Assembly (NCBI RefSeq): GCF_030028105.1 | Contig: NC_092381.1 | Location: forward strand, 46,291,474-46,355,473 | Origin: Mobula birostris | Taxonomy: Eukaryota | Reading direction: 5' to 3' | DNA length: 64,000 nucleotides | Part shown: positions 5,784 to 58,734 of the stretch, one piece after another | How the letters are laid out: each line of letters begins with the position of its first letter | How positions within the stretch are numbered: the first letter of the stretch is position 1 | Program-made: the position numbers and the translations under genes | Notes under the pieces: model-generated | Seen by the model: the letters and a program-made list of their open reading frames with translations, nothing else | Database searches by the model: none | What the model was told of the DNA's origin: nothing

Positions 5784-7308
5784 CTAAGTAGCAAAAAGAA
5801 ATTTGTTACAATGTCGTCACAGCACTGAACAACTCTGTAAAGTTGAACACAGAAGTTATTGAGAAACATTTTACACTGAACCTTTTTGCCTTATGGAAGC
5901 ACTAGACCTAATCCAGTAATTGCATATAACATGTAAAAAAAAAATCAAATATAGGAAATCTGAAACAAAAGCAGAAAATGTTAAAAATCTGTAACTTTTG
6001 ACCTGAGACATCACCTGTTTCTCTTTCCTTAATACAATTGTTACCTGATCTGCTGAATATTTTAAAGTAAGAAAAACTGAAGAATTGAATGTGCAGAAGA
6101 ACCTAACATTTGCAATTGATCTGAAAATCTATTTGGCTCTTTTGAGTTTCCCAAATATTCAGTCAATTTATTACAACACACAAATGAAACAATTTTGATA
6201 CAAAATGTAAGCTTCTAGAAACTACATGCACTAGTTACTGTACAAAATAGTGAACTTAAGAAACAGGTGTAAAATACATGGGATGAGCTGCAAGTTGCAA
6301 AGCAGTAATTCTGCAAGAACAGAAGTAGAGTAAGGCAGAGGAGGAGTACGAGATGACAACAATAAAGTAAAACACCTTTCCAAAAAGATCAGAAAGCAAG
6401 AACCAGAATATTACTACACAAAATTTGACACTTTGCTGAGTGGATATTTTAGGAGAATGACCAAAAACTTGGTAAAAACTTTTGAGGAAGGAGAGGTAGA
6501 AAATCAAGGGTATCGACGCAGGGACTTCCTTAACACAGGCCCTTGGTAGCTGAAGAGTCAATTGTCATTGGTGAATGGATTAAATTTAGAGCTGACCATA
6601 CTTTGGGGGGGGGGGGAATGCTTATAATAGAGATTATAAAATGGAGATTAGCAAGGAAGGAGAGCATGAAACCACAGAAGGATTTCAAATAATCAAGTGA
6701 TGTTCTACTAGCAGCTACAGGGTCGGATAGCAATGGAGTGATGGGTGAAGGAGACTTGGTGAATGTTAGGACAAAGGCAGCTGAGCTTTGGGTAATCTCA
6801 TATCTACAACTACAAGAACAAGTTTGTGAACCCTTTGCAATTATCTGCACAAGGGTTTTCTGCATTAATTACTCATAAAATGTGGTCTAATCTTCATCTA
6901 CATCACAATAATAGACAAACAAAATCAGCCTAAACTGATAAAACACAAACAATTGCATTTTTCATGATTTTATTGAACATATTGTTTAATTATTCACAGT
7001 CCAGGCTGGGAAGAGTATATGAACTCTTGTATTTAATAACTTGTAGAACCTCCTTTAGCAGCAATAACCTCCACCAAACGTTTCCTGTAGCTACTGATCA
7101 GACTAGCTCAATGGCAGGCAGGAATTTTAGACAATTCCTCCATGCAAAACTGTTTCAGTCTATCAATATTTCCAGGATACCTTGCAAGAACAGCCCTCTT
7201 CAGGTCATGCCACAGTATCTCAATTGGGTTAAGGTCTGGACTCTGACTTGGCCATTCCAAAACACGAATTTTCTTCTTCTTAAACTAACTGTTGCTGATT
7301 TACTCTTG

Positions 7309-7465
7309 AGGAAGAGGTGCAGCCGACGTTTCAGTCCTGACGAAGGGTCTCGGCCTGAAACGTCGACTGCACCTCTTCCTAGAGATGCTGCCTGGCTTGC
7401 TGCGTTCACCAGCAACTTTGATGTGTGTTGCTTGAATTTCCAGCATCTGCAGAATTCCTGTTGTT
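7309..7465 (+). mobile_element. Short Penelope-like (PLE) insertion with inverted 5' arm, nested in Tc1
   Basis: 13-bp TSD TGATTTACTCTTG (7296-7308, 7466-7478); 26-bp inverted arm 7309-7334 vs 7355-7380; same 3' sequence as the GIY-YIG-linked copies. Confidence 0.85.
7332..7369 (+). ncRNA. Minimal type I hammerhead ribozyme motif (Penelope-associated)
   Basis: Stem I CAGTC/GACTG; core CTGACGA; stem II within AGGGTCTCGGCCT; GAAA; palindromic ACGT in place of helix III; GUC cleavage triplet ending at 7364. Confidence 0.7.
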
Positions 7466-10400
7466 TGATTTACTCTTGGTGTTTCAGATCATTGTCTTGT
7501 TGCATCATCCAATTTCTATGAAGCTTTTGGTGACTGACCACTACCTTGACATTGTCCTGGGACTATGTTCTGTGGACAGTTGAGACAAAAGTTGAACAAT
7601 TTTTGAATTCATTGTTCCTTCAACGATTGCAAGCTGTCCAGGCCCTGAGGCAGGAAAGCATCCCGAACCATGATGCTCCTTCCACCATGCTTCACAATTG
7701 GGATGAGGTTTTGATGTTGGTGTGCACTGCCCTTTTTCCTCCAAATATAGCTTCTGTTGGAAAGTTCAACTTTTATCTCAACTGTCCACAAAGCATTGTC
7801 CCAGAAGCATTGTGGAACATCCAGATGATCTTTTCCCAACTTGAGACGTGCAGTAATGCTTTTTTTGGAGAGCAGTGGTTTGCTCTGTGGTGTCCTTCCA
7901 TGAACACCATTCTTATTCAGTGTTTTCCTTATAGTGGACACATGAACAGAGACTTTAGCAAGTTCTAGAGATTTCTGCAGGACTTTTGCTGTTACCCTTG
8001 GGTTCTTTTTCACCTCCTTCAGCATTGCACACTGTGCTGTTGGTGTGATCTTTGCAGGATGCCCACTCCCAGGGAGAGTAGCAACAGTACTGAATTTTCT
8101 CCATTTGTAAACAATTTCTCTTACTGTGGACTCATGAATACTTCGGTCTTTAGAAATGCTTTTGTACCCTATGCTTCATACAACTCTACTAAGGTCCTCT
8201 GAAAGTTGTTTTGAATGAGATATGGTGTACGTAAACAGATCTTTCTTGAGAAGAGCAAGCTGTGTCAGCAACCTGACTTTGTGTGCCATTTTTATAAGGC
8301 AGGGTACCTTTACAACCCACATCTCCATTCTCAACTGATTGACTGGAACGCCTGACTTGAAACAGCTTTTGTAGAAGGCATCAACCCAGAGGTTCACATA
8401 CCTTTTTTAACCTAGACCCTGAATGATTAAACAATGTGTTCAATAAAGACCTTAAAAGTACAATTGTTAGTGTGTTTTCAGATTAGGCAGATTGTGTTTA
8501 TCTATTATTGTGACTTAGCTAAAGATCAGACCACATTTTATGAGTAATTAATGCAGAAAACCAGGTAATTGCAAAGGGTGCACAAACTTCTTCTTGCAAC
8601 TGTATATAAGGCCAGTCTAATATTCACCAATTTGGAAATCATATTTCCAAAACGCATAAGGTCTAAAAGTAAGAAACCAAAAACAGGTGTGCGCAGGCAG
8701 AGGTAGACTAGGAGAAGGTTATGGAACTGGCAGTAACTAGTCTTATTAATCAGAATTTACTTCAGGAGCAAATACAACGGCAAAACAGCAAACAAGGTAA
8801 TTCAATTTCAGACAAACATCAGAGAGCAGAACAGAATCAGTGATTAGAGAATAAATTTCGTGAGAAGAAGCAAAAACAAGTTTTGGCCTTCCCAAAGCCA
8901 GAGGTAACCTCTGTTCACTGCATCATCTTAAGCAGTGTGAAAAAAAGATATAGAATGGACTAAGATTCAGTCAAAGGACCTGCGGAAAAGACCCAACATC
9001 TTTATTCATGTAGTGTGATTGAGCAAACTGAACTATAATAACAGATGTAATCATGACCCGCAATCCTTGCAATGGAAGGGCAAATGACAGTGACAAAGAT
9101 ATGAGGGAAAACAGTTAGCAGCATATATTGATGTACATACAAGAGATAAAATGAGAGCCTGAGAGATCAAGACCAAACAAGAACAAAAAAATTAACCACA
9201 TTAAAGTAATTTAAAACTCCCTAACACCAATAATGGTGCAAAGATCATGACAGAGACACTGTAGGTATGAATATGGAAAGCAATGGATTTGAGAGATTTG
9301 GAATGTCACGGCCTATTCCAACACTGGTGCAAAGCCACTAACATGCCTTACCCTTTCAAGACTCATTGCATTTCTGAGACCTAAATGAAAGATTGTTTAT
9401 GCAACTTTAGTAGTACGTCACCCTCAACTTGACTCCACTCTGTCAAATTCTCCCAATCTTCACCTTCACAAAGAGCATCTCACACAATTTTATTGAATAG
9501 CACAGTTGAAATGCTTGCTCTTTCCTAACTTTCTGACTGCGTCCGATATGAGTTTGTACCAAACAACTTCTATGCCGTTACTATTTCAAAACTATGTATA
9601 AAGGTGTGGAGTTATGCAGCAGAGATGCAGGCCCTCCAGCCCAATTTAACCATGCCAATCCAGATATCAACCTAACCTAGTCTCATCTTCCTGAATTTGG
9701 CCCACATTTATATAAACCTTCCCTATTGATGAAACTGCCCAATACGAAATAAATGTTGTAATTGGTCCTGTCTCTACCACTTCCTCTGGCCTTTTGCTCC
9801 AGAAAGCCACCACCCTCCATGTGGAAAAACTTCTCCTCAGGTCCCCTTTGAATATTTCACAATCAATGACTCTAGTTTAAGACTTGCCATTTCTGGAAGA
9901 AAGAAAAACACGACTATCCATCCATCTTATCTATGCTCCTCACTATTTCATAAAACTCAAAATGTCACCATTCAGTCTGGTTCAATCCCAAGAAACAAGT
10001 TCCAGCCTCTCCTTATAACTCAAGCACTCCAGTCCCACCAACATCTTTGTGAATCTGTTGCCCAATGTCCTGTGCAGCTATAACATGACACTCCAACCCT
10101 TGTACTCCAACGAAGACAAGCATACCAAACGCCTTCTTCACCACCCTTTCTTACCGTGTTACCATTTTCAATGAATTATATAATTACACCCCATAGGCCT
10201 CTCTGTACTACAACACGTTTCAGGGTCTTGTCAGTTACTGTTCAAGACCTTCATTGGTATAACTCCCCAAGATCCACCATTTCGCACTTATCTGAGTTAA
10301 ATCTCAATTGCATTCCCTGGCCCGTTTTCCCAATTGTTCTTTGCTGTACACATCGCCTGGTCAAGGATTCCCAATGCTCATAAACCGGACCAAACTTTTA

Positions 10401-10530
10401 CTAAGGTTATTTTAAAATTTCCCAATGTAAACAAGCAACGACTTTGCTACTCTGCTGACAGCAACCAACCGGTTCCCATCCGAATAAAACTGAAGAGGTC
10501 GCGGCCCAAATGCGCTTCAGCTGTAATCTT

Positions 10531-10705
10531 TCACAAAATGCCGGAGTAAGTCAGCAGGTCAGGAAGCATCTACGGAAACGAACAGAATAGATCTCGGCCC
10601 GAAATGGGATTAGGTGTTTATTTCCATAGCTGCTCTCTGACCTGCTAAGTTGCTCCAGCATTTTGAATGGATTTTCAGCATCTGCAGACTTTCTCGAATT
10701 TATGA
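10531..10705 (+). mobile_element. Short PLE-derived insertion with inverted arm
   Basis: TSD TCAGCTGTAATCTT/TCAACTGTAATCTT (10517-10530, 10706-10719); family motif ctgacctgctaagttgctccagcattttg...cagcatctgcag. Confidence 0.75.
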
Positions 10706-10746
10706 TCAACTGTAATCTTACGGATTGATCCTCCACCGTTCTATAC

Positions 10747-10876
10747 CTGTAAGCCCGAAACATTCTTCCTTCCAATACTTGGACTCGTAGATGCGAGTGC
10801 GAATTATTTTTTCAATCAGATATTGCGGATTGGTCCCATGGATGCTGTGCGCATCTTTCACCGTCCGGTTCGCCAT
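10747..10876 (-). CDS. PRPF38A: PRPF38A (pre-mRNA splicing factor 38A) coding exon 1
   Basis: Translates MANRTVKDAHSIHGTNPQYLIEKIIRTRIYESKYWKEECFGLT, the PRP38A N-terminus; donor ACAG|GTATAG; 130 nt, phase 1. Confidence 0.97.
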
Positions 10877-11200
10877 TGCAATCCCAGAAGCCCCCGCGAG
10901 GTGGTGACCTCCCAAACAGCGTTCACAGCGCCTCCCTCCGTCTAGGCGGTCTAATTTACGCGGACCCCTCTCCCGGCGAACAATGTGACTGCAGCGCCTC
11001 CCAGCGACCAGGCGGCCTCACGTACACGGAACGCCCCTCTCCCGGCGAACAATGTGACTGCAGCGCCTCCCAGCGACCAGGCGGTCCAAAGTACACAAAC
11101 TGGGAAAACGCAACGACTCCGATTCAGTGGGATCTCAGGATGAATGAAAACAGTGCGGGGATCGCAGACACTTTCATAGATAGGCAAGGCGCATACTGAT
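10877..11200. promoter_or_regulatory. PRPF38A CpG-rich promoter/5'UTR region
   Basis: High CpG density directly upstream of the ATG; ZNF143-like and CTCF-like motifs; 69-bp tandem duplication. Confidence 0.65.
10965..11084. repeat. Tandem duplication, 69-bp period, 51-bp identical core
   Basis: cccctctcccggcgaacaatgtgactgcagcgcctcccagcgaccaggcgg at 10965-11015 and 11034-11084; partial degenerate copy at 10926-10949. Confidence 0.95.
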
Positions 11201-11432
11201 GCACTAAAAGGTATGTATTTTCAGGTTGTTTAATGTCATTTCCTTTACACAAGAGTAAGGACAGCGAAATGATTGTTATTCCGGAACTGATGCAGCACAA
11301 AAAAACATAAAAGATAAAGAACACAATAATAATATTTTTTTAAAAACAGTAAAAGGAGGTGGAGCACTCCTTCAGCCTGATGCAACGCTTACACGTGCTC
11401 CCATTGGGTTGCCAGGAGTCTTGTTTCCTCTT

Positions 11433-13870
11433 AACCCAGCACCCAAGTGCCCTCATTACCATCTCGGGTGACTTCAACCATGTCACCATGGCTAGAACAC
11501 TGCCCAACTTCACGCAGTATGTGAGCTGTACAACCAGAGGGGAGAGGACTCTGGATTTGCTGTGCGCTAACGTTAAGGATGCATACAGCTCCTCTCCCCT
11601 CCGCCCTTTGGGAAGGTCAGACCACAACCTGGTGCATCTAAAACCCTGCTACGTGCCTCTGGTGAAGAGTAAACCTGCAACCTCGAGGACAGTGAGGAAA
11701 TGGTCGGAGGAGGCTTATGAGGTGCTCCAGGGTTGTTTTGAGGTGACAGACTGGCAGACACTCTGTGTGCCACATGGAGAGGATATTGATGGGCTCACAG
11801 AATGCATCACTGATTACATCAACTTCTGTGTGGACTGCAATGTTCTGACAAGAACTGCCCTTTGTTATTCAAATAATAAGCCATGGGTAAAAGAGGACAT
11901 TAAGGACATCCTGAATGCTAAAAAGAGGGCATTTAGAGATGGAAATAGGGAGGAGCTGAGGGCAATACAGAGGGACCTGAAAGCCAGGATCATGGAGGCT
12001 AAAGATAGGTACAGGAGGAAGCTTGAGTGGAAACTCCAGCAGAACAACATGAGAGAGGTCTGGAGGGGGATGAGGACCATCACTGGGTTCCAGCAAACTA
12101 GCAACAGAGGAGCTGAAGGCCGTGTGGACAGGGCCAATGAACTTAACCTGTTCTTTAACAGGTTTGACAGTGTGGCCCCAGCCCATCCCACACATGAGCC
12201 ATCTGTTGTCGGCCCCCAACCAAAACGTATTCCACTCTCCCCTTCTACTCCTCCTCACAGTCCCCTACCCTGCTTTCATGACTATACCCCTTGCCCACAC
12301 AAAACCACCACGGTGGGCTTCACAGCTGAACAGGTGAGAAGACAGCTGAAACGTCTCAACCCAAGCAAGGCTACAGGACCGGATAGTGTCAGTACCAGGG
12401 TGCTCAAAGCCTGTGCCCCTCAGCTATGTGGAGTACTTCGCCATGTATTCAACCTGAGCCTGAGGCTCCGGAGGGTTCCTGTACTGTGGAAGACGTCCTG
12501 CCTTGTCCCTGTGCCGAAGATGCCGCGCCCCAGCGGCCTCAATGACTACAGACCGGTGGCATTGACCTCCCACATCATGAAGACCCGGGAGAGACTTGTT
12601 CTGGAGCTGCTCTGGCCTATGGTCAGGCCACACTTAGATCCCCTTCAGTTCGCCTACCAGCCCCGACTAGGAGTTGAGGATGCCATTGTCTACCTGCTGA
12701 ACCGTGTCTACACCCACCTGGACAAGCCAGCGAGCACTGTGAGGGTCATGTTTTTTGACTTTTCCAGTGTGTTCAACACCATACGCCCTGCTCTGCTGGG
12801 GGAGAAGCTGACAGTGATGCAGGTGGATGCTTCCCTCGTCTCATGGATTCTTGATTACCTGACTGGCAGACCACAGTACGTGTGCTTGCAACACTGTGCG
12901 TCCGACAGAGTGATCAGCAGCACTGGGGCTCCACAGGGGACTGTCTTGTATCCCTTTCTCTTCACCATTTACAGCTCGGACTTCAACTACTGCACAGAGT
13001 CTTGTCATCTTCAGAAGTTTTCTGATGACTCTGCCATAGTTGGATGCATCAGCAAGGGAGACGAGGCTGAGTACAGGGCTACGGTAGGAAACTTTGTTAC
13101 ATAGTGTGAGCAGAATTATCTGCAGCTTAATGTGAAAAAGACTAAGGAGCTGGTGGTAGACCTGAGGAGGGCTAAGGCACTGGTGACCCCTGTTTCCATC
13201 CAGGGGGTAAGTGTGGACATGGTGGAGGATTACAAATACCTGGGGATACGAATTGACAATAAACTGGACTGGTCAAAGAATACTGAGGCTGTCTACAAGA
13301 AGGGTCAGAGCCGTCTCTATTTCCTGAGGAGACTGAGGTCCTTTAACATCTGCCAGACGACGCTGAGGATGTTCTACGAGTCTGTGGTGGCCAGTGCGAT
13401 CATGTTTGCTGTTGTGTGCTGGGGCAGCGGGCTGAGGGTAGCAGACACCAACAGAATCAACAAACTCATTCGTGAGGCCAGTGATGTTGTGGGGATGGAA
13501 CTGGACTCTCTGACGGTGGTGTTGTAAAGAGGATGCTGTCCAAGTTGCATGCCATCTTGGACAATGTCTCCCATCCACTACATAATGGACTGGTTGGGCA
13601 CAGGAGTACATTCAGCCAGAGACTCAGTCCACCAAGATGCAACACAGAGCATCATAGGAAGTCATTCCTGCCTGTGGCCATCAAACTTTACAACTCCTCC
13701 CTTGGAGGGTCAGACACCCTAAGCCAATAGGCTGGTCCTGGACTTATTTCCTGGCATAATTTATGTATTACTATTTAACTATTTATGGTTTTATTACTAT
13801 TTAATTATTTATGGTGCAACTGTAATGAAAACCAATTTCCCCCGGGATCAGTACAGTATGACTATGACTA
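11433..13870 (+). mobile_element. Rex1/Babar-type LINE, 5'-truncated in the APE domain, young
   Basis: ORF with SGDFNH and SDHNLV (APE), YRPVALTS, FDFSSVFNTI, GAPQGTVL, KFSDD (RT); only in-frame stops at 13102 and 13525; tail (ATGACT)n. Confidence 0.92.
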
Positions 13871-13974
13871 ATTCCTCATGATATTGAAGAAAGGCTTTCT
13901 GAGTGGATGCTAGCTCTTGGAGTAATCCTTTTTCCCCACTTCTCTGGCAAGACCTGTGGTAGAGGTGTATGTAG

Positions 13975-14580: not shown

Positions 14581-16989
14581 ACATCAATAAGAACAGGTGT
14601 GTGAACGACTCACAGTTCACCTGTGACAGAGTTCTTAGTGGTGGAGGATGTGCACTCCCATTTACCGAGGGAGATTAGTACTATTGTGATTATGGCTGTA
14701 TACATTCTCCCCCCCCCCACCACCACCACCATGCTAATGCTGGCTGGGGAAGCACTGCCTGAGCTGTATAGCAATCCACACACACAGTAAAGTATGGTTT
14801 CTTTATTGTTGCTGGCAACTTCAGCCATGCGAACTTCCAAACAGTCCTCCCTACACTCTATCAGCATGTAGTCTTCGCCACCAGAGGTGAGAACACATTC
14901 GAATTGGTTTATACAAACATCCCTGGTGCATACGAAGCCGTTCACTGTCCTCACCATGAAGCGCCATTAGAGTTGTACTTACTCTTTACCTTTTAACTTG
15001 TGTCACAAAAGCACCTCATTATTTGTTAATTTACTAGCGGTAATATTACTGAATGTGTTTTGTGTACTGTGTTGTGCACCCTGGTCCAGGGGAACGCGGT
15101 TTCGTTTGGCGGTATACACGTGTACAGTTGAAGGATAGTAAACTTGAACTTGAAGCTGATCTCTAACAGAGAATCACTAATGCCCTTAGATTTTCCCACC
15201 AGTCGTCAATTCTAGATATAATTACCAAGATCACCAGAGCTATGAGGCAGTGGCAATACCTAGAGTGTCTTTGTGTTTTGTCTGGTGGCTCTGAGCACAG
15301 AATTGAATCTTTTCCTCTGTTTGCCTGGTAATCACTGTCCATGACAGGACTCAAAGAGAGTGACTGTTTTGGGAGTCTGGTATTGGACCTGCAGATAACT
15401 TGCCTTGCCACCCTGGCTGACTGAGGGAAACTATGGCCTTGATACCAGAAGTTGTTGGCCTGAGGGACAATACTTACACTGATTTGCTTGACCTTACGGT
15501 AACTTTGGAAGATTTTTCAGAGACTGCATTGATGATATTTTTCTAGTATCTTGAAAGCCACAAGAAGATCCTCCACTAATTTGCTCTCTGACAATTAAGG
15601 TCCACAGTGAAACCCTGAAAATAGGCATCATTTTGCAAATTTCGGTGATCATCTCTCGGTATAGGCAGGTATTGAGGATGAAACTTACCAACACCTTCAA
15701 TGCATTAGTGTAGCCTTTGGTCAATTCATTGAAGGCTATTTAATTAAATTCAAAATAAATGAGGAAATGTTGAAAGCATTCAGTAGGTCAGGCAGCATAT
15801 CTAGAAAGTGAAACAGTGTTTACAACTCAGGTTGGAATTGCAAACTTGAGAAAGATACTAATTCTTAGCTTTTAAGTTGTGGGAGGGATGGATACATCAT
15901 TTTGAAAGAAAACAAGAGTGCATCACGAAGCAGTTAACTGTTCAATCTCTGGAGATGTCATTGAGTTGCCTGCCAGTCTATTTTTCCATCCCACCTCCAT
16001 TCTGACCCTTCTGTGGCCATTTTCACTGTTTCCTCAAAACTCAATCTAAGTTTGAGAAGCAACAGCTTAACTTCCATCTGGGCACGCTGCAGCCTTTGAG
16101 CAACTTGCTTTTCTGCCTGAATCAGAACTGGCCAGTTCTGCTGCAATAGTAACTCATTTTCCCTCTCTTCCTAAATGCTGTCTGATCTAGGGCCAGTTCT
16201 TATCTCTCCACATGCACTAAGCTATTGGGCATTTCCAACAGTCTTTCGTTTTTAGTTTTCTGCAACGGCTGTTTTATCCCACAGTTTCTCTCTCTCTAAT
16301 TTCTTTCAGTAATACCAGATGGTTTCTCAAACAGCAAATCCCCTCTTTCTATCACTTTGGAACTGAATGAATGCAGACTGATTTGGATGCAATTAGTCAG
16401 ATTTGTTTTTGTTTACTCGGGAAAGGGACATGTCTGAGCTAATTTCCATATTGTTCAGCACATAGCATACAAACCTTCAGTTATACAGGATATTATCCAA
16501 TCCATTTCAAACCAGTGATAACAGGTGGACATAATTTAGATTGCAGTAACAGAGTTAACTATGTCCTCAAGTATATGTGGGAGAGGGGGCCTGAATGGAT
16601 AGATGGAGGGTGGTTGGATTGGATTGGCATAGTACAGGCTCAAGGAATGTGCAGGTCAGCTACACAACGACGTTAAAGTGTTGAAAATTGCGGGTTCTAG
16701 CAAGTCTGTGGGAACCTTATTCACGAGGTTCCAAAGTTTCAAAATGATGATCATAAACCACTGCAAATAACAAAAAAAAACATACTTGGTACTGAGTCAG
16801 AGATAAAAACAAACGCTGGAAACATTCAGCAGGCCAGGCAGTATAAAGTTAGTTTCTGATGGAAGACCTTGTCTTGTTTTAAGTATTGTTATTTTCTTAT
16901 CCTTGTTTAAAATCTAACAACCTGTTTTTCTTGAGGTGATCAGGGACTTCACCAGAATAGAGGATAATTATCCTCTATGTTAATTGGAG

Positions 16990-18278: not shown

Positions 18279-18489
18279 CCACACACACAAAATGCTGGAG
18301 GGACTCAGCAGGCCAGGCAGCGTCAATGGAAAAGAGTGCAGTCGACGTTTTGGGCCCAGATCCTTCAGCAGCCCGAAACTTTGACTGTACTCTTTTCCAT
18401 AGATGCTGCCTGTCCTGCTGAGTTCCTCCAGCATTTTGTGTGTGTTGCTTTGATTTCCAGCATCTGCAGATTTTCTTTTGATTGTGATT
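18279..18489 (+). mobile_element. Short PLE-derived palindromic insertion
   Basis: TSD GAACTTTCAAG/GAATTTTCAAG (18268-18278, 18490-18500); long inverted arms; degenerate hammerhead core on the minus arm. Confidence 0.8.
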
Positions 18490-24038: not shown

Positions 24039-25593
24039 CAGGTTTCCCCCGCCATCCAAAGGTAGAGCGTTCCTATGAAACAGTTCGTAAGCCGGAATGT
24101 TGTAAAGTGAAAAAGCAATTACCATTTATTTATATGGGAAAAATTTGTGAGCGTTCGCAGACCCAAAAATAACCTACCAAATCATGCCAAATAACACATA
24201 GAACCTAAAATAACAGTAACGTACAGTAAAAGCAGGAATGATATGATAAATACACAGCCTATATAAAGTAGAAATACTTTTCCACAATCATTGCCTGCAC
24301 TGTTGTCCATAGCGAAAATCTCACACAAGTGCCATTGGCAAAAACATGGCGCAAGTGCTCTCAGCAGAAAATCTCACGCAAGTGCTGTTGGCAGAAACAG
24401 TCTCTCCAGTAACCTTTAAGCTATGAAGCTGCCAAATCATACCAAATAACACGTAAAAGTACACAGCCTATATAAAGTAGAAATAATGTGTGTACAGTGT
24501 AGTATCACTTACAGGAATCGGGAAGACAGCGCCGAGCACACTGATGATGGTGTGTTAGACTGAGTTGTCGGAGTTTGGGTGGTGCAGTGGCCCCCACCCT
24601 CCGGGCAGCGACCCGATACCGACCCACAAAGCATGCAGTAGTGCAGCGGTAGCTGGGAGGCACACAGCACATCTTTAAGAAAAAAGCCGAAATAAACATG
24701 CTAATTAATGCCAATTGCATCGCCTCTGATCTGAGCCGACAGTTACATGTCGGGCGGCACCTAATCAATTAGCATATTTATTTCTGCTATTTTCTTAAAG
24801 ATGTGCTGTGTGCCTCCTGGCTACTGCCGCATTCTCGGCGAATCGGTCTCTGTCCGCGGCCTGGGGGTTGGGGTGGTGGGACACTTGGGTGTCATCTCCT
24901 CGTCGTCTGTTTCCATTTGGGCAGGCAGCTCATCTCTATGACTGCCCGCCTCGATGTCGAAGGTTGAGGTTTGTCGTCTGATGTGGAAGGCTTGCTTGAC
25001 TGCTGAGCCTCGCTCATTTTTCTACAATACAGTTCTTTGTAAGCACTCAAACCATCCTGCAAATATCCTCTAAACCTACGTACCCTTTCAAAATTAAAGT
25101 ACTTTATCATTGCAGTGAAAATCTCACGCAGTTGTTTCACATTCAGTTCGCTACTGCATTCGGTTTCGATTGTTATCCTTTCCTCTTCCAATTGCATCAG
25201 CTCTTCATCTATGAGTTCTTGGTCATGGGATGCCAAAACCTCTTCGACATCATCTTCGTCAGCTTCCACAAGCCAAAGTCACGTTGTCCTTACTTCGTTC
25301 ACCATGATCAAAACGCTTAATTATGTCTAGCTTTACGCTAAGTGTAACATCCTTACGAGCTCTTTCAGGCTTTTCCGATACCTTAGAACTCATCTTGCTA
25401 ACGGCTGCTCACAGGCACATGTTTAAGCAATTCCGGCGAGAATGCCATTCCGAATCCGGGGGAGAGCGGCTGCTCGGGGCACGTGCTGCCTTTTATCGCG
25501 CGCTGATTTTTTTTTGTAAACAGGGAACTAATGTAGGTCTTTCGTAACAGTGAGGTTTTGTAAAGCGAATGTTCGAATAGCGGGGGACAGCTG
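24039..25593 (-). mobile_element. Tigger/pogo-like internally deleted transposon
   Basis: TA TSDs; TIRs CAGGTTTCCCCCGC / GCGGGGGACAGCTG; minus-strand HTH-psq start MSSKVSEKPERARKDVTLSVKLDIIKRF joined to C-terminal EDDVEEVLASHDQELIDEELMQL. Confidence 0.85.
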
Positions 25594-29736: not shown

Positions 29737-31771
29737 TAGAAATGGCGAAGTGAAATTTTTGATGAAATTTTTTTTCATTAAATTTAAAAAAATACTGGAA
29801 GTATTCAGGTCAGGCATAAGCTGTGGCGAGAACAATAAAGTTAATGTTTTGGTTTCAGGGTTGTAGGGTAATACTGCGTGGATACAGGCCTTTCAGCCCA
29901 ACTTGTCTATTCTGATCCAGCTACCTACCTGAGGTAGGACAACTTGCCTGAAGTTGTTTCAGATCCCTCTAATCGTTCATATCCTAAACGTTATTGATCC
30001 ATAACAAAACATATTCAACCTGAAACATTTTTCTTTTCACTAATGCTGCCTGACCTGCAGAGTATTTACAACATACTGCTGCCATTAAAAATTAGTCCCC
30101 TTTGATCTTTAAACTGTTTACCTGAAGATTCTCCTGCTCCTTCAAGTTGATTTTCCCATTTCCATGATAGCAATCTTGGCAGAGAAGGAATTGGCTAAAT
30201 TACACTCACCATTTCATCTCTGAAATTTTGGACACATATTGATATATATTCATGTTTGTTTATGGAATGCATGGTGCATGATCAGTTGATAACTTCTCAA
30301 TTTATTAAGCTTCTGTTATAATTAATAAGCCTATTAAATTTGCCTTGTTTGTTTTCTCTGAAAGTTGCTGTGTGAAATTTCCGAGTCTTTGAGTAGCTGC
30401 AAGAGTGTACCAGCAACTAAGTTGCTTAGGATTTCAGCTGAAGGTTTATTGATAATATCAGCAGTGACAGCACCACCAGAAGTTTGTAGTGTCCAAATCC
30501 TCTGTTATGCTTGAATAATGCGCACACCATCTACTGATCATGTTGTGTCTGATCCTGAATTACCTTCTGAGATGCCAGTTGTGCCCGGTATTAATAGCGT
30601 GGCCCATCTATGAGAGAAGGCAGTCCTTCTGACACAAGCAGGCCTGAAGAATTTTCAACAACAGCAGCACCGTGGTGCGACTGTACCAACACATAGGTTG
30701 TTAATTTGGGTTATAAGATTAGCTTTATTTGTCACATGTACATCAAAACATACAATGAAATAAACCGCACCAGCGACCAACATAGTCCGAAATGTGCTGG
30801 AAGCAGCCTGCCAGTGTTGCCATGTTTCTGGCACCCACAAGTTACTAACCTAACCTGTAAGTCTTTGGAATTGGGAAGAAACTGACACGGTCATGAGGAG
30901 AATGTACAGATTTCTTATAGACGGCGGCAGAATTGAGTGCAGGTTGTTGGCCCTGTAATAGTGTGACACTAACTGCGGCATTACTGTGCTCCCGCTTTAG
31001 GAACACAAGAGCAAGTGATAGCTGTTTTTAGAGTCTGGGAGTTACAGTGCATTTAATGGCAGAGTCAAAGTCTAGTACAACTTGGAACTAAGCCCTTTTG
31101 CTGCACAGAATCCACAGTGACCATCAAGCAAAAATTTTCACATATCCTCCACTAATCCCATTTTATTCTCCGGGTGCCCCTTATTAATTTTCCACTGACC
31201 TACTGCACATTAGAGACATTTGAAGTGGCCAGATCCTCATATCTGTGGGGTGTGGAAGGAAACGGGAATGTATGGACAAAGCTTGTGTGGTCACAGGCAG
31301 AATACAGGGACTCCATAACAGCACAGGAACCCAGCTCAGAGACGTTTGTGAGGCAGCAGTTTTGCCGTGCTGCCCTATCCCCACCTAGCCTTACCTCGAC
31401 ATTTAGGATGACTTGCTTCCACTCCATTTGGCATTTCTGAAGAGACCGCGAAAGGAGGTGTAGGCTCTTCCACGGATTGGGTAGATGGCGGGGCTAAGTA
31501 GGTCGCTGGTGAAGGAGTCTGCCCTCTCTGCCCCTAATGTAGAGTCTCCATGTTTTCCCAGCATGGATTTGAGGTTCCCGATTCTCCTTTTCATCTCTGC
31601 AGTCATCGACAAGATTCTGAGTTCGGGGGGGGCGGGGGAGGGTTACTTTTTTCCCCCCAAGAAAAATCAGTCTTTCCTCCGACACTTGGCGATGGCTTCC
31701 TGTGGTGGAGCTTAGAATAAGCATACCTGTGTTAGGAATCTGACGTCAAGCCTGCAACAGATGTGGCCTCC

Positions 31772-32230
31772 TATCACAAACAAGAGAAAATCTGCAGATG
31801 CTAGAAATCCAAGCAGCACACACAAACAAAATGCTAGAGGAACTCAACAGGCCAGGCAGCCTCTATGGAAAAGAGTACAGTCGATGTTTCAGGCCAAAAC
31901 CCCTCAGCAGGACTGCAGAAAAATGCTGAGGTTTAGACTTTAAAGGTGAGGGAGGGGAGAGAGAAAAGCACCAGGTAATGGGTGAAGCTTAGAGGGATGA
32001 AATAAAGAGCTGGGAAGTTGATTGGTGAAAGAGACAGAAGGCCATGGAAGAAAGAAAAGGGGGGAGGAGCACCAGAGGGAGGTGATGGACGAGCAAGGAG
32101 ATAAGTTGAGAGAGAGAGAAGAGGATGGGAAATGGTGAGGGGGGTGGGTTGGAGGCATTACCGGAAGTCTGAGAGATCGATGTTCATGCCATCAGGTTGG
32201 AGGCTACCCAAACGGAATATAAGGTGTGGT
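31772..32230 (-). mobile_element. Penelope-like element 3' end (GIY-YIG C-terminus plus 3' repeat)
   Basis: Minus frame HLIFRLGSLQPDGMNIDLSDFR*; degenerate hammerhead near 31877-31915; TSD ACAGATGTGGCC/ACAGACGTGGCC (31757, 32231); sits within an old RTE fragment. Confidence 0.8.
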
Positions 32231-32424
32231 ACAGACGTGGCCGACCCAGTGGAGCTGATTATGTGTGATGTGGGCTGCAGTGAAGGGGATGTTGGTCTGA
32301 GGGAAGATGCAGAAGTTGTTTTACTTATCTTTCCAGTAGATTTTGATGGATTTGCAGACCTCATTCATGATGTTGATTTAGTGCTGCAATTCAAGATTGT
32401 TTCGTCTCATATCCAAATGAACGA

Positions 32425-38731: not shown

Positions 38732-39031
<300 letters not shown>

Positions 39032-39295
39032 TAATCTGTGCTCCTGTCTCATTGTGGACAAACTCATCAATTGAGTGTGGGTGCTGAATGGTAAATGGCA
39101 GGAGGTTTGTTTACCACATTCAGCTTTCTACTGTGAGACTCTAGCTGACATTGAGTCCATGCCCTCCTGAATGTACACAGCTTCACTGTCATCTCTGGTG
39201 CACTGATGAAACAACATGTAATCAGGCATGGTGATGACGGAGACGTGGATGAATTTGAGCCATTGCGTTAGGTTATTGCTAAAACCACATTTCAG

Positions 39296-39680
39296 GAGGA
39301 GCTCAGTGGGTCAGGCAGCATCTGTAGAGGGAAATGGACAAACAACATTTCAGGTCAAAACTGTTCATCTGGACTAGGAGTGGAGGGGAGATGGCCATTA
39401 CAAAGAGGTGAAGGGAAAGGATGGAGCAAGAGCTGGCAAGTGACAGCTGTTTCCAGGTGAGGAGATAGGAACAGTGGGGGAAGGAGGACTCAACAGGAGG
39501 AGTGAATGGAAGATGGAATAGACGAGGAAGACAAGGAAACAGGATGATTGGGGGCTGTGGGAGTTGGTGGTTGAATGTGTGCATGAGGAACTAGGTAGAT
39601 CAGGAGGTGAGAGATGAGCAGTGGTGGAGGGGGGGAGCAGATTACCTGAAACTGGAGAAGAATGAGGTTGGAAAGTCAAG
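39296..39680 (-). mobile_element. Penelope-like 3' end, degenerate
   Basis: gagctcagtgggtcaggcagcatctgtag family motif plus purine-rich 3'UTR. Confidence 0.6.
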
Positions 39681-40254
39681 GGGTGGATATGGTGTTATTT
39701 ATGGAGAATATTTGTACCAGGAAGGCGGAAGTGATAGAAAAATCAGAGCTTGGGGCTGGAAGGGATTTATCTCAGGATGCTAAGGGAAGTAAGGGAGGAA
39801 ATTGCTGGGGTTTTGTATTTGTATCTTCATTAGCAATGGTTGAGATACCAGAAGAATGGAGGATAGCTAATGCAATGCCCTTGTTGAAAAGTGCCAGGAG
39901 GGAGAAGCCTGGAAATTATAGGCTGGTGAGCCTTACATCAATGGTAGGGAGATGTTGGAGAAGTTTCTGAAGGACAAGATTTGTGTTCACTCAGAAAGCC
40001 AGGGGCTGATTAGGGGGACCAAGCATGGTTGGTTCAGGGAGACTGAAGCTGGGGCAGTAGACACTGTCTTGGACTGTGTAAACTTTTTGAGCAAGTTTTT
40101 CACATAGGCTGTCCGGAAGGTTAATGTACAATGAGTGGAACCATGGCATTTTGATGAACCGTGTTCAAAATCATTTGGGTGATTGGAAACAGGGAGAGTA
40201 GTGGATGTGTGTTTTTTTTGGATTGAAAGTCTGTTATAAATGGCATACTGCTGA

Positions 40255-40880
40255 ATGGGGAATGGGGAATGGAGAAGGGAGAGGAGAAATTATTGGAAGT
40301 TAGATAAATCGATGATCATACCATCAGGTTGGGGGCTACGCAACTGGAACATGAGGCATTGCTGCGCCTCAGGCAGTATATGGGGCAATGCCCCTCTCGC
40401 CCTCTCCCTTCTGTCATTCCCAATTCTGGTTCCCCCCCCCCCCAATTCCTTTTCCTCACCTGCTCCACACTTTCCTCTGGTGCCCCTCCTCCTTCCATTT
40501 CTTCCATAGTCCACTGTCCTGTCCTATCCAGTTCCTCCTTCTCCTGCTCTTCACCTCTTTAACCTATCACCTCCCAGCTTCTTTCTTCATTCCCTCCATC
40601 ACCCAACCATCCATCTTCCTCCTCACCTGGTTTCACCCATCACCTGCCAGCTTGTACTCCTTTCCCTCCCCCCCGCCACCCTTCTTAGTCTGGTTTCTTC
40701 CCCCTTCTTTCCAGTCCTGATGAACAATCTCAGCCTGAAGTGTTGACTTTTTCAGTTAAACATTTCAGTGAAATGCTGACATGTTTCTTCCTGTCCGTTG
40801 ATGTTGTCTGACTTGCTGAGTTCCTCTGGCATTTTATGTGTGTTGCTCAAGATTTCCAGCATCTGCAGAATCTCTTGCGT
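40255..40880 (+). mobile_element. Penelope-like insertion: inverted GIY-YIG C-terminal piece (40255-40375, minus) plus 3' end (40385-40880, plus)
   Basis: Minus frame QQCLMFQLRSPQPDGMIIDLSNFQ*; plus strand has degenerate hammerhead cagtcCTGATGA...GAAG and the family 3' end. Confidence 0.7.
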
Positions 40881-41210
40881 TTATTATTCCTGTGAAGGCA
40901 AGTCGAAGTAAAATCCATATTGCTGTTGAAGGTCAGGGTATCCGTTATTAGTTGGTGGCAATAAACTGCTCTACTATTCCCTATGTCGGGAAAGGAAGAG
41001 AATCTAATTTATAAAACTTCAGTAAGGAATCCTGTGGAAAATGCAAAATAAAAGACAAGAAATGTGCATTAACCACAGATCTAGATTAGGAACTGAGATT
41101 TTCAATTCATGCTTAATTTTATTCAGTGTAGTCATTCTGTTTATGGATCAGGAAATAAGAATAATGAATTTTAAGCTTCTGTTAGTCAATTGACGTTTGA
41201 ACTTTCACAG

Positions 41211-41744: not shown

Positions 41745-41894
41745 TCACAAGCAAGAGAAAATCTGAAGTGCTGGAAATCAGAGCAACACACACAAAATGC
41801 TGGGAACGCCGAAGGGCTGAAACGTCAACTGTACTTTTTTCCATAGATGCTACCGGGCCTGCTGAGTTCCTCCAGCATTTTTGTGTGTGTTGCC
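41745..41894 (-). mobile_element. Short PLE-derived palindromic insertion
   Basis: TSD TCAATATCTACCAA/TCATTATCTACCAA (41731-41744, 41895-41908); inverted arms gcaacacacacaaaatgctgg / ccagcatttttgtgtgtgttgc. Confidence 0.8.
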
Positions 41895-46025: not shown

Positions 46026-47753
46026 GGTTCTGAAGGAGGTGGCTAAAGAGATTGTGGAGGCATTAGTAGTGATCTTTCAAGAATCACTAGATTCTGAAAT
46101 GGTTCTGGGGTACTGGAAAATTGCAAATGTCATTCCACTCTTTCAGAAGAAAGAGTGGCAAAAAAAACAGGAAAATTATTGGCTAGTTAGCCTGACTTCA
46201 GTGGTTGTGAAGATGTTGGAGTCCATTATTGAGGATGAGGTTTCGGGGTACTTGGAGGCACATAATTGAATAGGCCAAAGTCAGCGTGGTTTCCTCAGGG
46301 GAAATCTTGTCTGATAAATCTGATGGAATTCTTTGAGGAAATAACAGGCAGGATGGACAAAGGCAAGTCTGTGGATGTCGTTTGTTTTGATTTTCAAAAG
46401 ACCTTTGAAAAAGGGGCCACTCATGAGGCTGCGAAACAAAACTATTGCCCATGATATTACAGAAAATATACTAGCATGGATGGAAGATTGGCTGCTGCAG
46501 GAGGTGTTGGGAATAAAGGATGTTGGGACTGCTTCCTTTCACATTATTGGTCATTGAATTGGATGATGGAATTGATGGCTTTGAGGCCAAGTTTGCAGAC
46601 GATATAAAGATAGGTGGAGGGGCAGGTAATGTTGAGTAAGCATGGTATCTATAGCAAAACCTGAACAGTTTAGGAGAATGGGCAAAGAAGTAGTAGATGG
46701 ATTATAGTTTAGGGAAATGTATGACCATGCACTTGGTAGAAGGAACAAAAGCATAGACTATTTTCTAAATGGGGAGAAAATGCAAAAATCAGAGGCACAG
46801 AGAGACTTGGGAATCCTCATGCAGGATCCCTAAAGATTAACTTGCAGATTGAGATGGTAGTAAGCAAGGCAAATGCAATGTTAGCATTGATTTTGAGAGG
46901 ACTAGGATATAAGAACTGGGATGTGATGCTGAGGCTTTATAAAGCATTGGTCAGACTGCACTTGGAGTATTGTGAGCAGTTTTGGGCTCCTTATCAAAGA
47001 TCAGTGTTTGATATTGGAGAGGGTCCAGAGGAGGTTCACGAGAATGATTCCAGGAATGACACGATTAACATATGAGAACCATTTGATAGCTCTGGGCCTG
47101 TGCTCATGGAGTTTAGAAGGATGAGCAGCTATCTCATTGAAACCTATCAAATATTGAAAGTTTTTGATGGAGTGGACATGGAGAGGATGTTTCCTATAGT
47201 GGGAATGTCTAGAACCAGAGAGTACAGCCTCAGGATAGAAGGGAATCTCTTTAGAACAGAGATGAGGAGGAAGTTCTTTAGCAAGGGGTGGTGATTCTGG
47301 AATTTATTACCACAGAGCAAAGGTAGATAGGTTTTTATTTCCCACTCTGGCCTCTTACCTCTTCTCCTCACCTACCTATCACCTTCCCGGTGCCTGTCCT
47401 CCTTCCCCTTCTCCCATGGGGTCCTCTCCACTCCTATCAGATTCCTTCTTCTCCAGCCCCTTACCTTACCTATCACTTTCTAGCTAATCCTCCTTCTGTT
47501 CTCGCTCCCCCATCTTTTTATTCTGACGTCTTCCGCCTTTCTTCCCAGCCCTAAAGAGAAGTCTTGGCCTGAAATGCTGATTATTTATTCATTTCCGTAG
47601 ATACAACCTGACGTGCTGTGCTCCTCCAGCAGTTTGTGTGTGTTGCACTGGATTTCCAGCATCTGCAGAATCTCTTGTGTGTGATAGGTTCTTAATTGTT
47701 AAGGGTGTAATGAGCAGACTCAATGGGCTGAATAGCCTAATTCTGCTCTTGTC
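46026..47753 (+). mobile_element. CR1 LINE ORF2 fragment, degenerate
   Basis: WKIANVIPLFQK...NYWLVSLTS, DFQKTF, KFADD, LYKALVRLHLEYC. Confidence 0.85.
47340..47682 (+). mobile_element. Penelope-like 3' end nested in CR1
   Basis: TSD GATAGGTTTTTATT/GATAGGTTCTTAAT (47326, 47683); pyrimidine-rich 3'UTR and family terminus. Confidence 0.7.
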
Positions 47754-53507: not shown

Positions 53508-53636
53508 TTTGTAAATATTATGCAATGTGGAAAATTCAGAATGCTGAAATGTATGTTACTATTTTAACTCTTAATATTAATTTTTTTAACAAAATTAGGT
53601 TTTCAAAGTTTTTAATTTATTTTGAGCAGTTCTTAT

Positions 53637-53670
53637 AATAAAGAAATAGCAACTATGATTATTCAATAAA
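53637..53670 (+). terminator. ORC1 polyadenylation signals
   Basis: AATAAA at 53637-53642 and 53665-53670 in AT-rich sequence 130-160 nt after the stop. Confidence 0.6.
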
Positions 53671-55074: not shown

Positions 55075-57500
55075 TCATAATACTTTGGTTCAGTATTCAC
55101 TACGGAAATTGACAATTGTGAACTGAAAAGCTTGCGCATGTAGATATTAAGGAAAAGGATGTGCTGGAGCTTTTGGAAAGCATCAAGTTGGATAAGTCAC
55201 TGGGACCGGATGGGATGTACCCCAGGCTACTGTGGGAGGCGAGGAAGGAGATTGCTGAGCCTCTGGCAATAATCTTTGCATCATCAATGGGGATGGGAGA
55301 GGTTGCGGAGGATTGGAGGGTTGCAGATGTTGTTCCCTTATTAAAGAAAGGGAGTAGAGGTAGCCCAGGAAATTATAGGCCGGTGAGTCTTACTTCAGTG
55401 GTTGGTAAGTTGATGGAGAAGATCCTGAGAGGCAGGATTTATGAACATTTAGAGAGGCAAAGTATGATTAGGAATAGTCAGCATAGCTTTGTCAAAGGTG
55501 GGTTGTGCCTTACAAGCCTGATTGATTTTTTTGAGGATGTGACTAAACACATTGATGAAGGTAGAGCAGTAGATGTCATGTATATGGATTTCAGCAAGGC
55601 ATTTGATAAGGTACCCCATGCAAGGCTAATTGAGAAAGTAAAGAGGCATGGGATCCAAGGGGACATTGCTTTGTGGATCCTGAACTGGCTTGCCCACAGA
55701 AGGCAAAGAGTGGTTCTAGACGGGTCATATTCTGCGTGGAGGTCGGTGACCAGTGGTGTGCCTCAGGGATCTGTTCTGGGACCCCTTCTCTTTGTGATTT
55801 TTATAAATGACCTGGATGAGGAAGTGGAGGGATGGGTTAGTAAATTTGCTGATGACACAAAGGTTGGGGGTGTTGTGGATAGTGTGGAGGGCTGTCAGAG
55901 GTTACAGCGGGACATTGATAGGATGCAAAATTGGATTGAGAAGCGGCAGATGGAGTTCAACCCAGATAAGTGAGGTTTTTCATTTTGGTGGAATATAGTA
56001 TTATTGGTGAGACTCTTGGCAGTGTGGAGGATCAGGGGGATTTGGGGTTGAGTCCATAGGACACTCAAAGCTGCCGTGCAGGTTGACTCTGTGGTTAAGG
56101 CTCAAGGTGCATTGGCCTTCAAAAATCATCGGGTTGAGTTTAAGAGCCGAGAGGTAATGCTGCAGCTCTAGGACCCTAGGAGATTTACAAGGATGTTGCC
56201 TGAATTGGGGAGCATGCCTTATGAGAATAGGTTGAGTGAACGCGGCCTTTTCTCCTTAGAGTGACAGAGGATGAGAAGTGACCAGACAGAGGTGTGCAAG
56301 ATGATGAGAGGCATTGATCGTGTGGATAGTCACAGGCTTTTTCCCAGGGCTGGAATGGCTAGCATGAGAGGGCACAGTTTTAAGGTGCTTGAAAGTAGGT
56401 ACTTCCAAGAAGAGATGTCGGGGTTAAGTTTTTTATGCAGAGAATGGTAAGTGTATGGAATGGCCAGTGACGGTGGTGGAGACGAATATGAAAGGGTCTT
56501 CTAAGATACTCCTGGATCGTCGTGGTGGTGGCTATCATTTGAGGTCGAGGATGATGGTCTTCGTTCCGTTGATCTATTTATGGGCTCTCAAGTGGCTTAT
56601 GAGTCCAATCTTGGCTTTGAAAGTTCTTCCGCATTCAGGACAGGTAGTTCCTGATGGCAGATCGGGCTTTGGTTGTTGCTGCCTCTCTTTCCATTTTCTT
56701 CTAATTCTGCACATCTGTTGGCTTCGAAAGTTGCTGTTCCTTCTCGGATGATGGCTTGCCAGAGTTTCCTGTCCTTGGCATTGGCAACAATTTCCCAATT
56801 GTTGATGTCGATTTTGGCTTTTAAGACGTCTTTGAATCTCTTCTGTTGTCTGCCTCTTTTACGTTTGCCTTCTTTAAGCTGGGAGTAGAAGATCTGTTTT
56901 GGGAGACGTTCATCTTCCATCCGAACAACATGACTGCTCCATCTTAGTTGGTTCTTGATGACATAGGCTTCAATGCTCGTTGTTTTTGTTTCATTTAGCA
57001 CACTGACGTTGGTTCTTCTATCTTCCCAGCTGATATTTAAGATGTTTCGAAGGCAGTATTGATGGAACTTTTCAAGTGCCTTCAGATGTCGTCGGTATGT
57101 TGTCTGGGTTTCTGAAGCATACAGGAGCATTGGGATTACCACTGCTTTATACACTAACATTTTGGTGTTTGTTTGGATGTCACGATCATGAAAGACTCTT
57201 GTTCGGAGACATCCAAAAGCTGTTCCAGCACATTTAAGATGATGTTGGATCTCATCATTAAGGTCGACATTGGAGGAGAGGTGACTTTCAAGATATGGAG
57301 AGTGGTGGACGTTTTCCAGGGTTGTTTCGCCAAGCTGAATTGATGGTTCTATCCGATTTGTCTCAGTTGGTGACAAATGGCGCTTAGAAAATTAGAGGGC
57401 TATGGGTAACCCTAGGTAATTTCCAAGGTAAGGACATGTTGGGCACAGCTTTGTGGGCTGCAGGGCCGGTATTGTGCTGTAGGTTTTCTTTGTCTCTATA
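55075..57500 (+). mobile_element. CR1 (HER1-like) LINE 3' half, interrupted by RTE
   Basis: 270-aa ORF with NYRPVSLTS, DFSKAFDKV, GVPQGSVLGP, KFADD; CR1 3' end resumes at about 57377. Confidence 0.9.
56517..57376 (-). mobile_element. RTE-clade LINE 3' fragment
   Basis: YKAVVIPMLLYASET...ILNISWEDRRTN...QLRWSSHVVRM...LPKQIFY; frameshifted zinc finger CPECGRTFKAKIGLISHLRAH. Confidence 0.88.
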
Positions 57501-57760
57501 ACTTTATATACCTCTATTAAATTGTCTCTTAGCCTCCTTTACTCCAAGGTAAACAAATGTAGCCTCGCCAATGATCTCCTCATTAGGGCTCTAATTCAGG
57601 TAACATCCTGGTGAACCTGCTCGACTTTGTCCAGCTTTCCTATGATACAGTAATTGTACTGCACATATTAAACTAATGTTTTGGGAAGCTGCAACTCAAC
57701 ACTAACTTTTATAATCAATGCCCTGGGGTTTGAAGGAAAACACGCCTTATGTCTTCTCTA

Positions 57761-57899
57761 GCAACACACATTAAAGTTGCTGGTGAACGCAGCAGGCCAG
57801 GCAGCACCTCTTCCTAGAGATGCTGCCTGGCCTGCTGCGTTCACCAGCAACTTTAATGTGTGTTGCTTGAATTTCCAGCATCTGCAGAATTCCTGTTGT
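57761..57899 (+). mobile_element. Short PLE-derived insertion with a perfect 46-bp hairpin
   Basis: Perfect 14-bp TSD TTATGTCTTCTCTA (57747-57760, 57900-57913); arms 57761-57806 and 57821-57866. Confidence 0.88.
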
Positions 57900-58734
57900 T
57901 TATGTCTTCTCTACTTCCCTGTGAACTCGAACTACACGATTCCTCTTTACCCACATTCCTCAGCACCTTGCTTTTCACCGGAGAAGTCTTCGCACCACCA
58001 TTAGAGTTCCCAGAATGCAATACCTGGCGTTTGTGGGGATTAAATTCCATCCGCTAAATTTCCATCTAATCTATACAATAATGCAATTTCTGACAATCTC
58101 CCTCGCTATCCACCTCACCATGTAATTGGTAACGTACGAATGGCTTTCTGCATAGCCGGGGAGCTAATGCACCTTGTGTCAAACATCTCTTTCTTTATGC
58201 AGCCAACTGTTCAATGGACGTCATCTGTCCCTTTAAACCGCAGTTGTTCGAGATTTTATTTGAAAGCTCGATTTCCGTTTTCTTTTCAGCATAGCTACAA
58301 CTGCATTATGTTTTTTCTACGCATTTTTCTTTTATTCTGCTGTTTAGAGGGAGAAATAACAGCAAAGCAAGATTTTAAGATTGGCAAAATGTGGCTTACA
58401 CAATTCTTCACTTTTGACCTAACGTTGCTGCTGGTATTAGCGTTCTCTGTTGGCCTCAAGTTTTCTGGGATACTAAACAGACGCACTTCTCCGAAAAAGA
58501 ACGGAAGTTTATCTAAAACAGGGAACTCTTTTCCTAGCCGTATTACAATGTTCATTGCTGCCTCCGAATTTACCGCGAGAAATCGACATGTGCACTTGTT
58601 TCCAAAACAAATGTCTGTATTCACAGCTCTGGTTCTAAAACGCTTTGTGACGGTGGAGGATATTTTAAATCATGGGAGAATTATTATAGTCACAGTCACA
58701 GTTTCCCCTTGATCTGTCAACGAAAATAAATGCA

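Follow-up and report, generated by a model that had tools for sequence, protein, structure and literature searches.

In LINE-1 retrotransposition, twin priming, in which a second nick primes a second complementary DNA (cDNA), leaves a 5' inversion inside the target duplication, and the inner junction shows microhomology. Among Penelope-like elements (PLEs), Pen2a and Pen3a of the rotifer Adineta vaga carry an inverted 5'-truncated copy, a 30–40 bp tail at one end, a palindromic junction, and duplications of 8–10 bp or none (PMC3846280); the same general layout is described in PMC8557442, PMC8969392, and PMC2377424, and the same tail length in PMC11167929 and PMC8557442. Craig et al. 2021 (PMC8557442) attribute the tandem and inverted structures to aspects of the PLE cycle that are not yet defined and regard the tail as a likely product of endonuclease-mediated resolution. 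In vitro, the Poseidon element of the anole nicks and extends both target strands, its protein is predicted to be a dimer, and reverse transcription starts at two internal sites, the interval between which is the tail (PMC11167929, Frangieh et al. 2024). Here we analyze a family of short inserts in a 64-kb stretch of the Mobula birostris genome (NC_092381.1, positions 46,291,474 to 46,355,473; hereafter the window), which has 41.8% GC, no N, and abundant LINE and Tc1 remnants, its repeat content resembling that of a cartilaginous fish. The evidence moderately favors reading them as 5'-truncated inserts between true target duplications, likely PLE ends, whose hairpins likely arose by double priming rather than by fold-back. 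All counts rest on this one window and one set of reads aligned to it.

All seven pairs of direct repeats claimed by an earlier, sequence-only reading of the window are present, with lengths of 11–14 bp and 0–2 mismatches. Named by first coordinate, the inserts (139–462 bp) and their repeats are 7296 (7296–7308/7466–7478, plus strand; 13 bp, 13/13 identical, in a Tc1 transposase remnant), 10517 (10517–10530/10706–10719, plus; 13/14), 18268 (18268–18278/18490–18500, plus; 10/11), 31757 (31757–32242, minus, with the element at 31769–32230; 11/12), 41731 (41731–41744/41895–41908, minus; 13/14), 47326 (47326–47696, plus, with the element at 47340–47682, in the 3' end of a CR1-like LINE; 12/14), and 57747 (57747–57760/57900–57913, plus; 14/14). 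As a chance control, 1500 random position pairs were searched within ±5 nt or ±15 nt of each point. The narrower search gave scores of at least 8 in 6 of the 1500, at least 9 in 3, and at least 11 in none; the wider search gave 41, 11, and 2, respectively. The observed scores, in the order above, are 13, 11, 8, 9, 11, 9, and 14, and as a set the seven repeats exceed chance expectation. A BLAST comparison with the copies added an unlisted eighth tail-bearing copy in the window (~40245–40885, plus strand, around 40856); five further fragments are more distant and do not have this tail.

The repeats of 57747, the youngest insertion, are a true target duplication. Organism B is a relative at ~2% letter divergence whose runs share 47% of sampled words with 57450–58700. 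In its run X5, the junction of 57746 with 57900 lies at letters 316/317 of record 23. Letters 1–316 of this 1844-nt contig match 57431–57746 and letters 317–1103 match 57900–58688, and the contig lacks exactly the insert and one 14-mer. Run X7, from the same sample, agrees with the empty site: one contig's match stops at 57760, and another begins at 57919. The comparison of empty sites in relatives, which the sequence-only reading had proposed, thus returned a single 14-mer copy rather than two, in one sample of one relative. Because the arm (46/46) and the duplication (14/14) are unmutated, 57747 probably inserted after the lineages split, and by its presence or absence it can serve as a clean marker for two close lineages.

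For 7296, the host sequence is a Tc1 transposase remnant. On its right flank the alignment to Sleeping Beauty extends as far as T140, which coincides with the first codon of the repeat (E 0.067). The left flank picks up at K149 (E 6e-17), and the 24 nt between the flanks fit exactly one copy of the 13-mer (T140 plus eight codons reaches L148). The host is a Tc1-like transposon at 6801–8608 with long inverted repeats (82–85%) and a broken transposase. Six target bases just upstream of the duplication (7289–7294) equal the element's own end, and the duplication can also be read as ~20 bp with an indel. Paralogous empty sites were sought within the window, and only 47326 had one: a LINE at 62887 holds one best match to the repeat (13/15), weakened by surrounding indels. 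It could be argued that the repeats are coincidental or were already present in the target, or that the hairpins are assembly artefacts, and three pairs are indeed individually modest (scores 8, 9, and 9). We regard this as highly improbable in light of the random-pair control, the single-copy empty site, and the Tc1 frame. Chance or pre-existing repeats are already refuted for 57747 and 7296, and in four of the five hairpins substitutions or indels separate the arm from its partner, unlike a read-level fold-back artefact.

In the sense of copy 31757, the element runs from 22 coding residues and a stop through a pyrimidine-rich stretch, a hammerhead, and a conserved core of ~60 nt to the terminal 33–42 nt. 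A descriptor scan of the window, with the descriptor type taken from PMC4209133, returned one intact minimal hammerhead motif, at 7332–7369 on the plus strand (helix I, 7332–7336/7365–7369, 5 pairs; core 7337–7364; helix II, 5 pairs; predicted cut after 7364), and decayed versions align in other copies. Minimal hammerheads occur in the pseudo-long terminal repeats (pLTRs) of metazoan PLEs, and the 7332–7369 motif shares with those of PMC4209133 the type I minimal form, a 5-bp helix I, an extra base before helix II, and a palindromic pair replacing helix III; helix II is 4–5 bp in the Mobula family, and the ribozyme is a predicted one. Rfam did not match the hammerhead at 7332–7369. Its seven matches, six microRNA-hairpin models and one bacterial small RNA, all fell below the gathering score and were dismissed as generic hairpins. 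Minimum-energy folds recovered neither the hammerhead nor a stable tail hairpin (z −1.1 to +1.0 in seven of eight stretches). Just after the hammerhead, at 18385–18400 and equivalents, a pyrimidine run ends in AG and is followed by ATG and a frame open through the tail, which looks like a splice acceptor and a possible open reading frame (ORF) start; pLTRs of PLEs can hold an intron.

The tail measures 33, 38, and 39–42 nt in three of the five hairpins and ~40 nt in a fourth. The sequence-only reading assigned a single 3' terminus to all seven inserts; between copies, the last element base scatters over ~10 nt. Inserts 31757 and 41731 carry the terminus motif on the minus strand, and in 41731 it has diverged. 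The peptide that this reading placed at the end of longer copies occurs in one of the seven: copy 31757 holds the 22 C-terminal codons (32226–32161), a pyrimidine-rich untranslated region, a decayed hammerhead, and the tail, but 47326 begins downstream of them, and a diverged, inverted version occurs in the eighth copy. The peptide HLIFRLGSLQPDGMNID, encoded at 32226–32176 on the minus strand, may correspond to the end of a PLE GIY-YIG domain, which it resembles; sequence searches did not confirm the resemblance. Pfam returned no family for three peptide pieces (22 terminal codons surviving), the ESM Atlas gave no usable match for the peptide, and a word-index search for the partner protein gave 102 candidates, none at E ≤ 10. 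Two matches from a full-library phmmer search, a HEAT/NACHT protein and a repeat-rich protein, were dismissed as summed repeat matches. Two DNA patterns of the family had no match in metagenome, viral, or prokaryote genome collections. Of the features that mark endonuclease-bearing PLEs, a hammerhead motif in the pLTR, a 30–40 bp tail at one end, 5' truncation with an adjacent inverted copy, and a short target duplication are present. Every copy in the window is too short to hold the second pLTR of a partial tandem (direct pLTR) arrangement. Taken together, the inserts are likely truncated ends of a Penelope-like retrotransposon, as had been proposed; the structure is one already described for PLEs, and the family itself is a new or at least unplaced member.

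Five of the seven inserts carry the inverted copy of element sequence that the sequence-only reading had described, and two are plain truncations. We placed the hairpins on a common axis, that of copy 7296, with the hammerhead at 7332–7369, the tail from ~7432, and the end at 7465. The 7296 insert has a short arm of 26 nt on the minus strand (7309–7334; 25/26 identical to 7355–7380) and a forward copy at 7332–7465, from the hammerhead through the tail end. In 18268 the inverted arm (18279–18371; axis 7337–7428) runs from the tail start back across the entire hammerhead and is 68/77 identical to the forward copy at 18371–18489. The 57747 arm (57761–57806; axis 7386–7431) is 46/46 identical to its forward copy (57804–57899, with the tail at 57867–57899). 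In 41731 the tail-bearing copy occupies the minus strand (41745 to ~41806), and the arm, on the plus strand at ~41807–41894, has its outer end at the tail start and reaches the hammerhead (axis 7352 or earlier to 7431). The arm of the older insertion 10517 (~10531–10585; roughly 7365–7420 on the axis, of which the aligner placed 7383–7414 and the remainder was judged by eye) is only ~78% like the forward copy (~10588–10705). Forward copies start at axis 7331 (7296), 7353 (18268), 7369 (57747), 7402 (41731), and ~7348 (10517), and arm lengths range from 26 to 93 nt.

Two regularities emerge from these spans. The outer arm ends of 18268, 41731, and 57747 fall at axis 7428–7431, the tail start, leaving 42 (39), 38, and 33 nt. 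The 5'-most points of all five hairpins fall at axis 7331–7369, within the 40-nt hammerhead; short truncations are favored anyway, and the clustering is suggestive only. Hammerhead cleavage was considered as a general stop and ruled out, as 7296 and 18268 run through the entire ribozyme. Inner-junction overlaps are 3 nt at 7296, 3 at 57747, and 1 at 18268. A breakpoint that differs each time, as first described, is thus correct for the five inner junctions but not for the outer end, which is the same in three of five arms. All five arms overlap their forward copies, so the L1-type layout, with the inverted part upstream and non-overlapping, does not apply; only the eighth copy comes near it. 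There, an inverted piece (~40245–40372) with C-terminal codons lies mostly upstream of the forward part (~40385–40885; inner bounds approximate), a layout nearer L1-type twin priming. A duplication was sought for this copy and for older fragments near 280 and 39300, and none was callable.

The unpaired loop is forward-copy sequence in three of the five hairpins (7296, 57747, and 10517) and arm sequence in two (18268 and 41731). This distribution bears directly on the fold-back proposed by the sequence-only reading, in which a cDNA primed at one nick turns back at its 3' end to copy its own strand, and the role of the other nick is limited to resolving the hairpin, perhaps where the tail begins or ends. 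That scheme fits 7296, 57747, and 10517, where the forward copy extends further upstream than the arm; the 57747 arm shares even a rare base with its partner, and the 7296 hairpin has a folding energy of −21.9 kcal/mol (z −3.4). It cannot make the arms of 18268 or 41731, which extend 16 nt and at least 50 nt, respectively, further upstream than the forward copy and hold sequence absent from it. The eighth copy, with its inverted coding piece, is likewise beyond its reach. Arm-only upstream sequence is thus already present in two of five hairpins, and fold-back needs an added rule to end three of five arms at one point. As a general explanation we consider it unlikely, though some inserts, such as 7296, may still have formed in this way. 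Hairpins 18268 and 41731 need two RNA-templated syntheses: in fold-back the loop can lie nowhere but in the forward copy, and the tail cannot come from a cDNA that started at the tail start. Loops in both orientations, three and two of the five, are as expected if two independently primed cDNAs meet.

A published proposal for the palindromes at inverted PLE junctions is self-priming on an antisense RNA template, followed by integration of the resulting head-to-head hairpin (Arkhipova et al. 2013, PMC3846280). By our reasoning this would place the loop in the arm, as seen in 18268 and 41731, but it misfits the three hairpins whose loop is forward-copy sequence, and the anole element in vitro primes from target DNA ends on an RNA template (PMC11167929). 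We rate it as rather improbable for these inserts. Still less credit is due to a pre-formed palindromic mini-element, whether a non-autonomous unit or one resembling a miniature inverted-repeat transposable element (MITE), that was copied whole. The family is very abundant and one inner-junction form occurs at ~15 times single-copy depth, as copying of a unit might produce. All five inner junctions in the window differ, however; the 7296 and 57747 cores are 98% identical and yet bear different arms; and the ends are asymmetric, with a tail on one side and longer members that run into coding sequence. The MITE with fixed terminal inverted repeats that the sequence-only reading had named as its own refuter was not found, given arms of 26–93 nt, five junctions, a one-sided tail, and two members without arms.

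In the double priming that we favor, the element endonuclease would nick both target strands ~11–14 nt apart, leaving 3' overhangs, and the distance between the nicks would become the duplication. The bottom-strand nick would prime at the tail end, often via 1–6 nt of chance pairing, to give the forward copy. The top-strand nick would give the arm by priming 33–42 nt upstream, at the tail start, with other internal sites used less often. Both cDNAs would be antisense, run upstream, and usually end at or near the hammerhead, through stalling or at the RNA 5' end, after which they would be joined head-to-head via 1–3 nt of microhomology and filled in. The product would read duplication, inverted arm, forward copy, tail, duplication; where the second end did not prime, a plain truncated copy would result (31757 and 47326). 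The duplications, the one empty site, the arm and tail geometry, and the hammerhead motif are observations, from which we infer priming as the arm source, the stagger, and the joining.

The junctions also bear on how priming might begin. The first bases of the duplication match the element's continuation at six of six testable sites (2, 2, 6, 1, 1, and 1 nt), the 6-nt case being 47326, where they equal the continuation seen in copy 31757. The total of 13 nt compares with 4–6.5 expected (P 0.002–0.04; 0.08–0.31 without the 6-nt case), and pairing-assisted priming is possible, with weak support from this match. No shared motif was seen at the 14 inferred nicks.

Several observations weigh against this explanation. 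The hairpin sample is five, and the two-site rule is exact in three of them: the 10517 arm ends 7–10 nt off the common point, and the 7296 arm ends 85 nt from the 3' end, off the tail start. The 57747 arm matches its partner even at a base carried by ~0.3–2.6% of family depth, which fold-back explains equally well. One of the eight tail-bearing copies has no duplication (seven of eight do). The partner with reverse transcriptase and GIY-YIG domains, whose recovery had been suggested as a check, was not found by protein searches, the window contains no full-length copy, and neither enzyme of the family was recovered in the searches. Finally, one junction form recurs at a depth of 191 versus ~13 for single-copy flank, so some hairpins may have been recopied rather than built anew.

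This last point comes from the reads, which also show that the family is very abundant. In run X1, 40,489 contigs aligned to 1.3 kb that includes a second repeat at 57400–57499; summed depth over the element exceeds 10^5 times that of the flank, which is not a copy number. Contigs leaving the element behind 57901 into mixed flanks number 514 in X1 and 543 in X5. The best-supported X1 joint with letters between is 57806–57837 (depth 191; a similar one has depth 46 in X5), and its forward part begins no more than 2 nt from the predicted hammerhead cut site; some templates may have been ribozyme-cleaved. An opposite-strand joint of tail end to tail start (57868/57901) appears in 4, 4, and 1 contigs of X1, X5, and X7, possibly from hairpin units in tandem. 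No family-wide ends at the tail start were seen among the 24 loose-end rows listed. Runs from organisms C and D and a skin metagenome shared few words with the window and provide no evidence, and X11 covered repeats only.

Duplication lengths are 11, 12, 13, 14, 14, 14, and 14 bp, with 14 bp at the site checked against an empty one. They were chosen by eye, by a reader seeking long repeats, and are blurred by 1–6 nt of junction overlap with element sequence, such that 47326 can be read as 12–15 bp and the true offset could be 11–14 nt even at 57747. A preprint describes PLE duplication length as variable (10.1101/2021.04.23.441226); the accessible text of PMC9977147, PMC12910113, and 10.64898/2026.07.22.740005 adds nothing further on it, and the term 'TSD' is absent from one supplement of PMC3846280. 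The range claimed for the stagger is indeed narrow, but a fixed value of ~14 bp is not established from seven sites with overlap blur and variable lengths in the preprint; 'about 11–14 in this family' is a fair statement. A stagger that proved narrow would limit the possible geometries of the predicted PLE dimer.

Elsewhere in the window, older relatives share the core and have other 3' ends (15757–15808, 16072–16130, 16806–16844, 265–331, 30015–30077, and 39295–39680), and a decayed C-terminal peptide is recognizable in two of them, at 16072 (plus strand) and ~39650 (minus strand). An unrelated hairpin at 24642–24831, with 68-nt arms that are 88% complementary and a 54-nt spacer, is possibly a small DNA-transposon derivative. 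A long LINE ORF remnant (583 + 140 aa; RVT_1, E 4e-16) occupies 11353–13527, preceded by a 69-bp tandem repeat at 10926–11096. A GC-rich stretch resembling a promoter CpG island (58700–59000) lies ~0.8 kb from the young 57747 insertion.

The family is ordinary, with a PLE anatomy that is already described, and its value lies in mechanism: the stubs provide a logical test, in that the copy holding the loop and the position of the arm end separate fold-back from double priming. We tentatively suggest, as a less than even prospect, that the inverted-repeat-plus-tail structure of PLEs in general is the imprint of programmed twin priming by a dimer with a near-fixed ~14-nt stagger, one cDNA starting at each tail boundary and the hammerhead region serving as the stop-and-join point. 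Were this true, a genome rich in young stubs would show the stagger, the use of start sites, and the joining rules directly. Compared with LINE-1 twin priming, where the inverted part lies upstream with little overlap and variable starts, the two Mobula parts overlap and form a hairpin, with the tail boundary as the recurring second start site. No literature linking double priming to the inverted arm and the length of the duplication was found, with thin coverage of subscription papers, including PLE reviews of 2005 and 2006. Published PLE explanations invoke self-priming or endonuclease resolution rather than double priming. In the main text of PMC11167929 consulted, the terms TSD, duplication, stagger, and microhomology do not appear, and inverted arms are not discussed. 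The Mobula inserts resemble A. vaga Pen2a and Pen3a (PMC3846280) in 5' truncation, an inverted adjoining copy, the tail, the junction palindrome, and short duplications that some copies lack; they differ in duplication length (11–14 bp versus 8, 9, and 10 bp in the rotifer) and in being stubs of only 139–462 bp. With Poseidon PAc of Anolis carolinensis (PMC11167929) they share a hammerhead in the pLTR and, if double priming is right, target strands that are both nicked and extended and a tail that equals the interval between two reverse transcription start sites. The AT-rich preference of PAc has a weak counterpart in Mobula, where 61 of 92 duplicated bases are A/T versus 58% in the window. 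The PAc start site is AC-rich, whereas the Mobula tail start is GU-rich in the sense strand, and the 14 inferred Mobula nicks show no evident ATT motif; the likeness to PAc carries no clade assignment.

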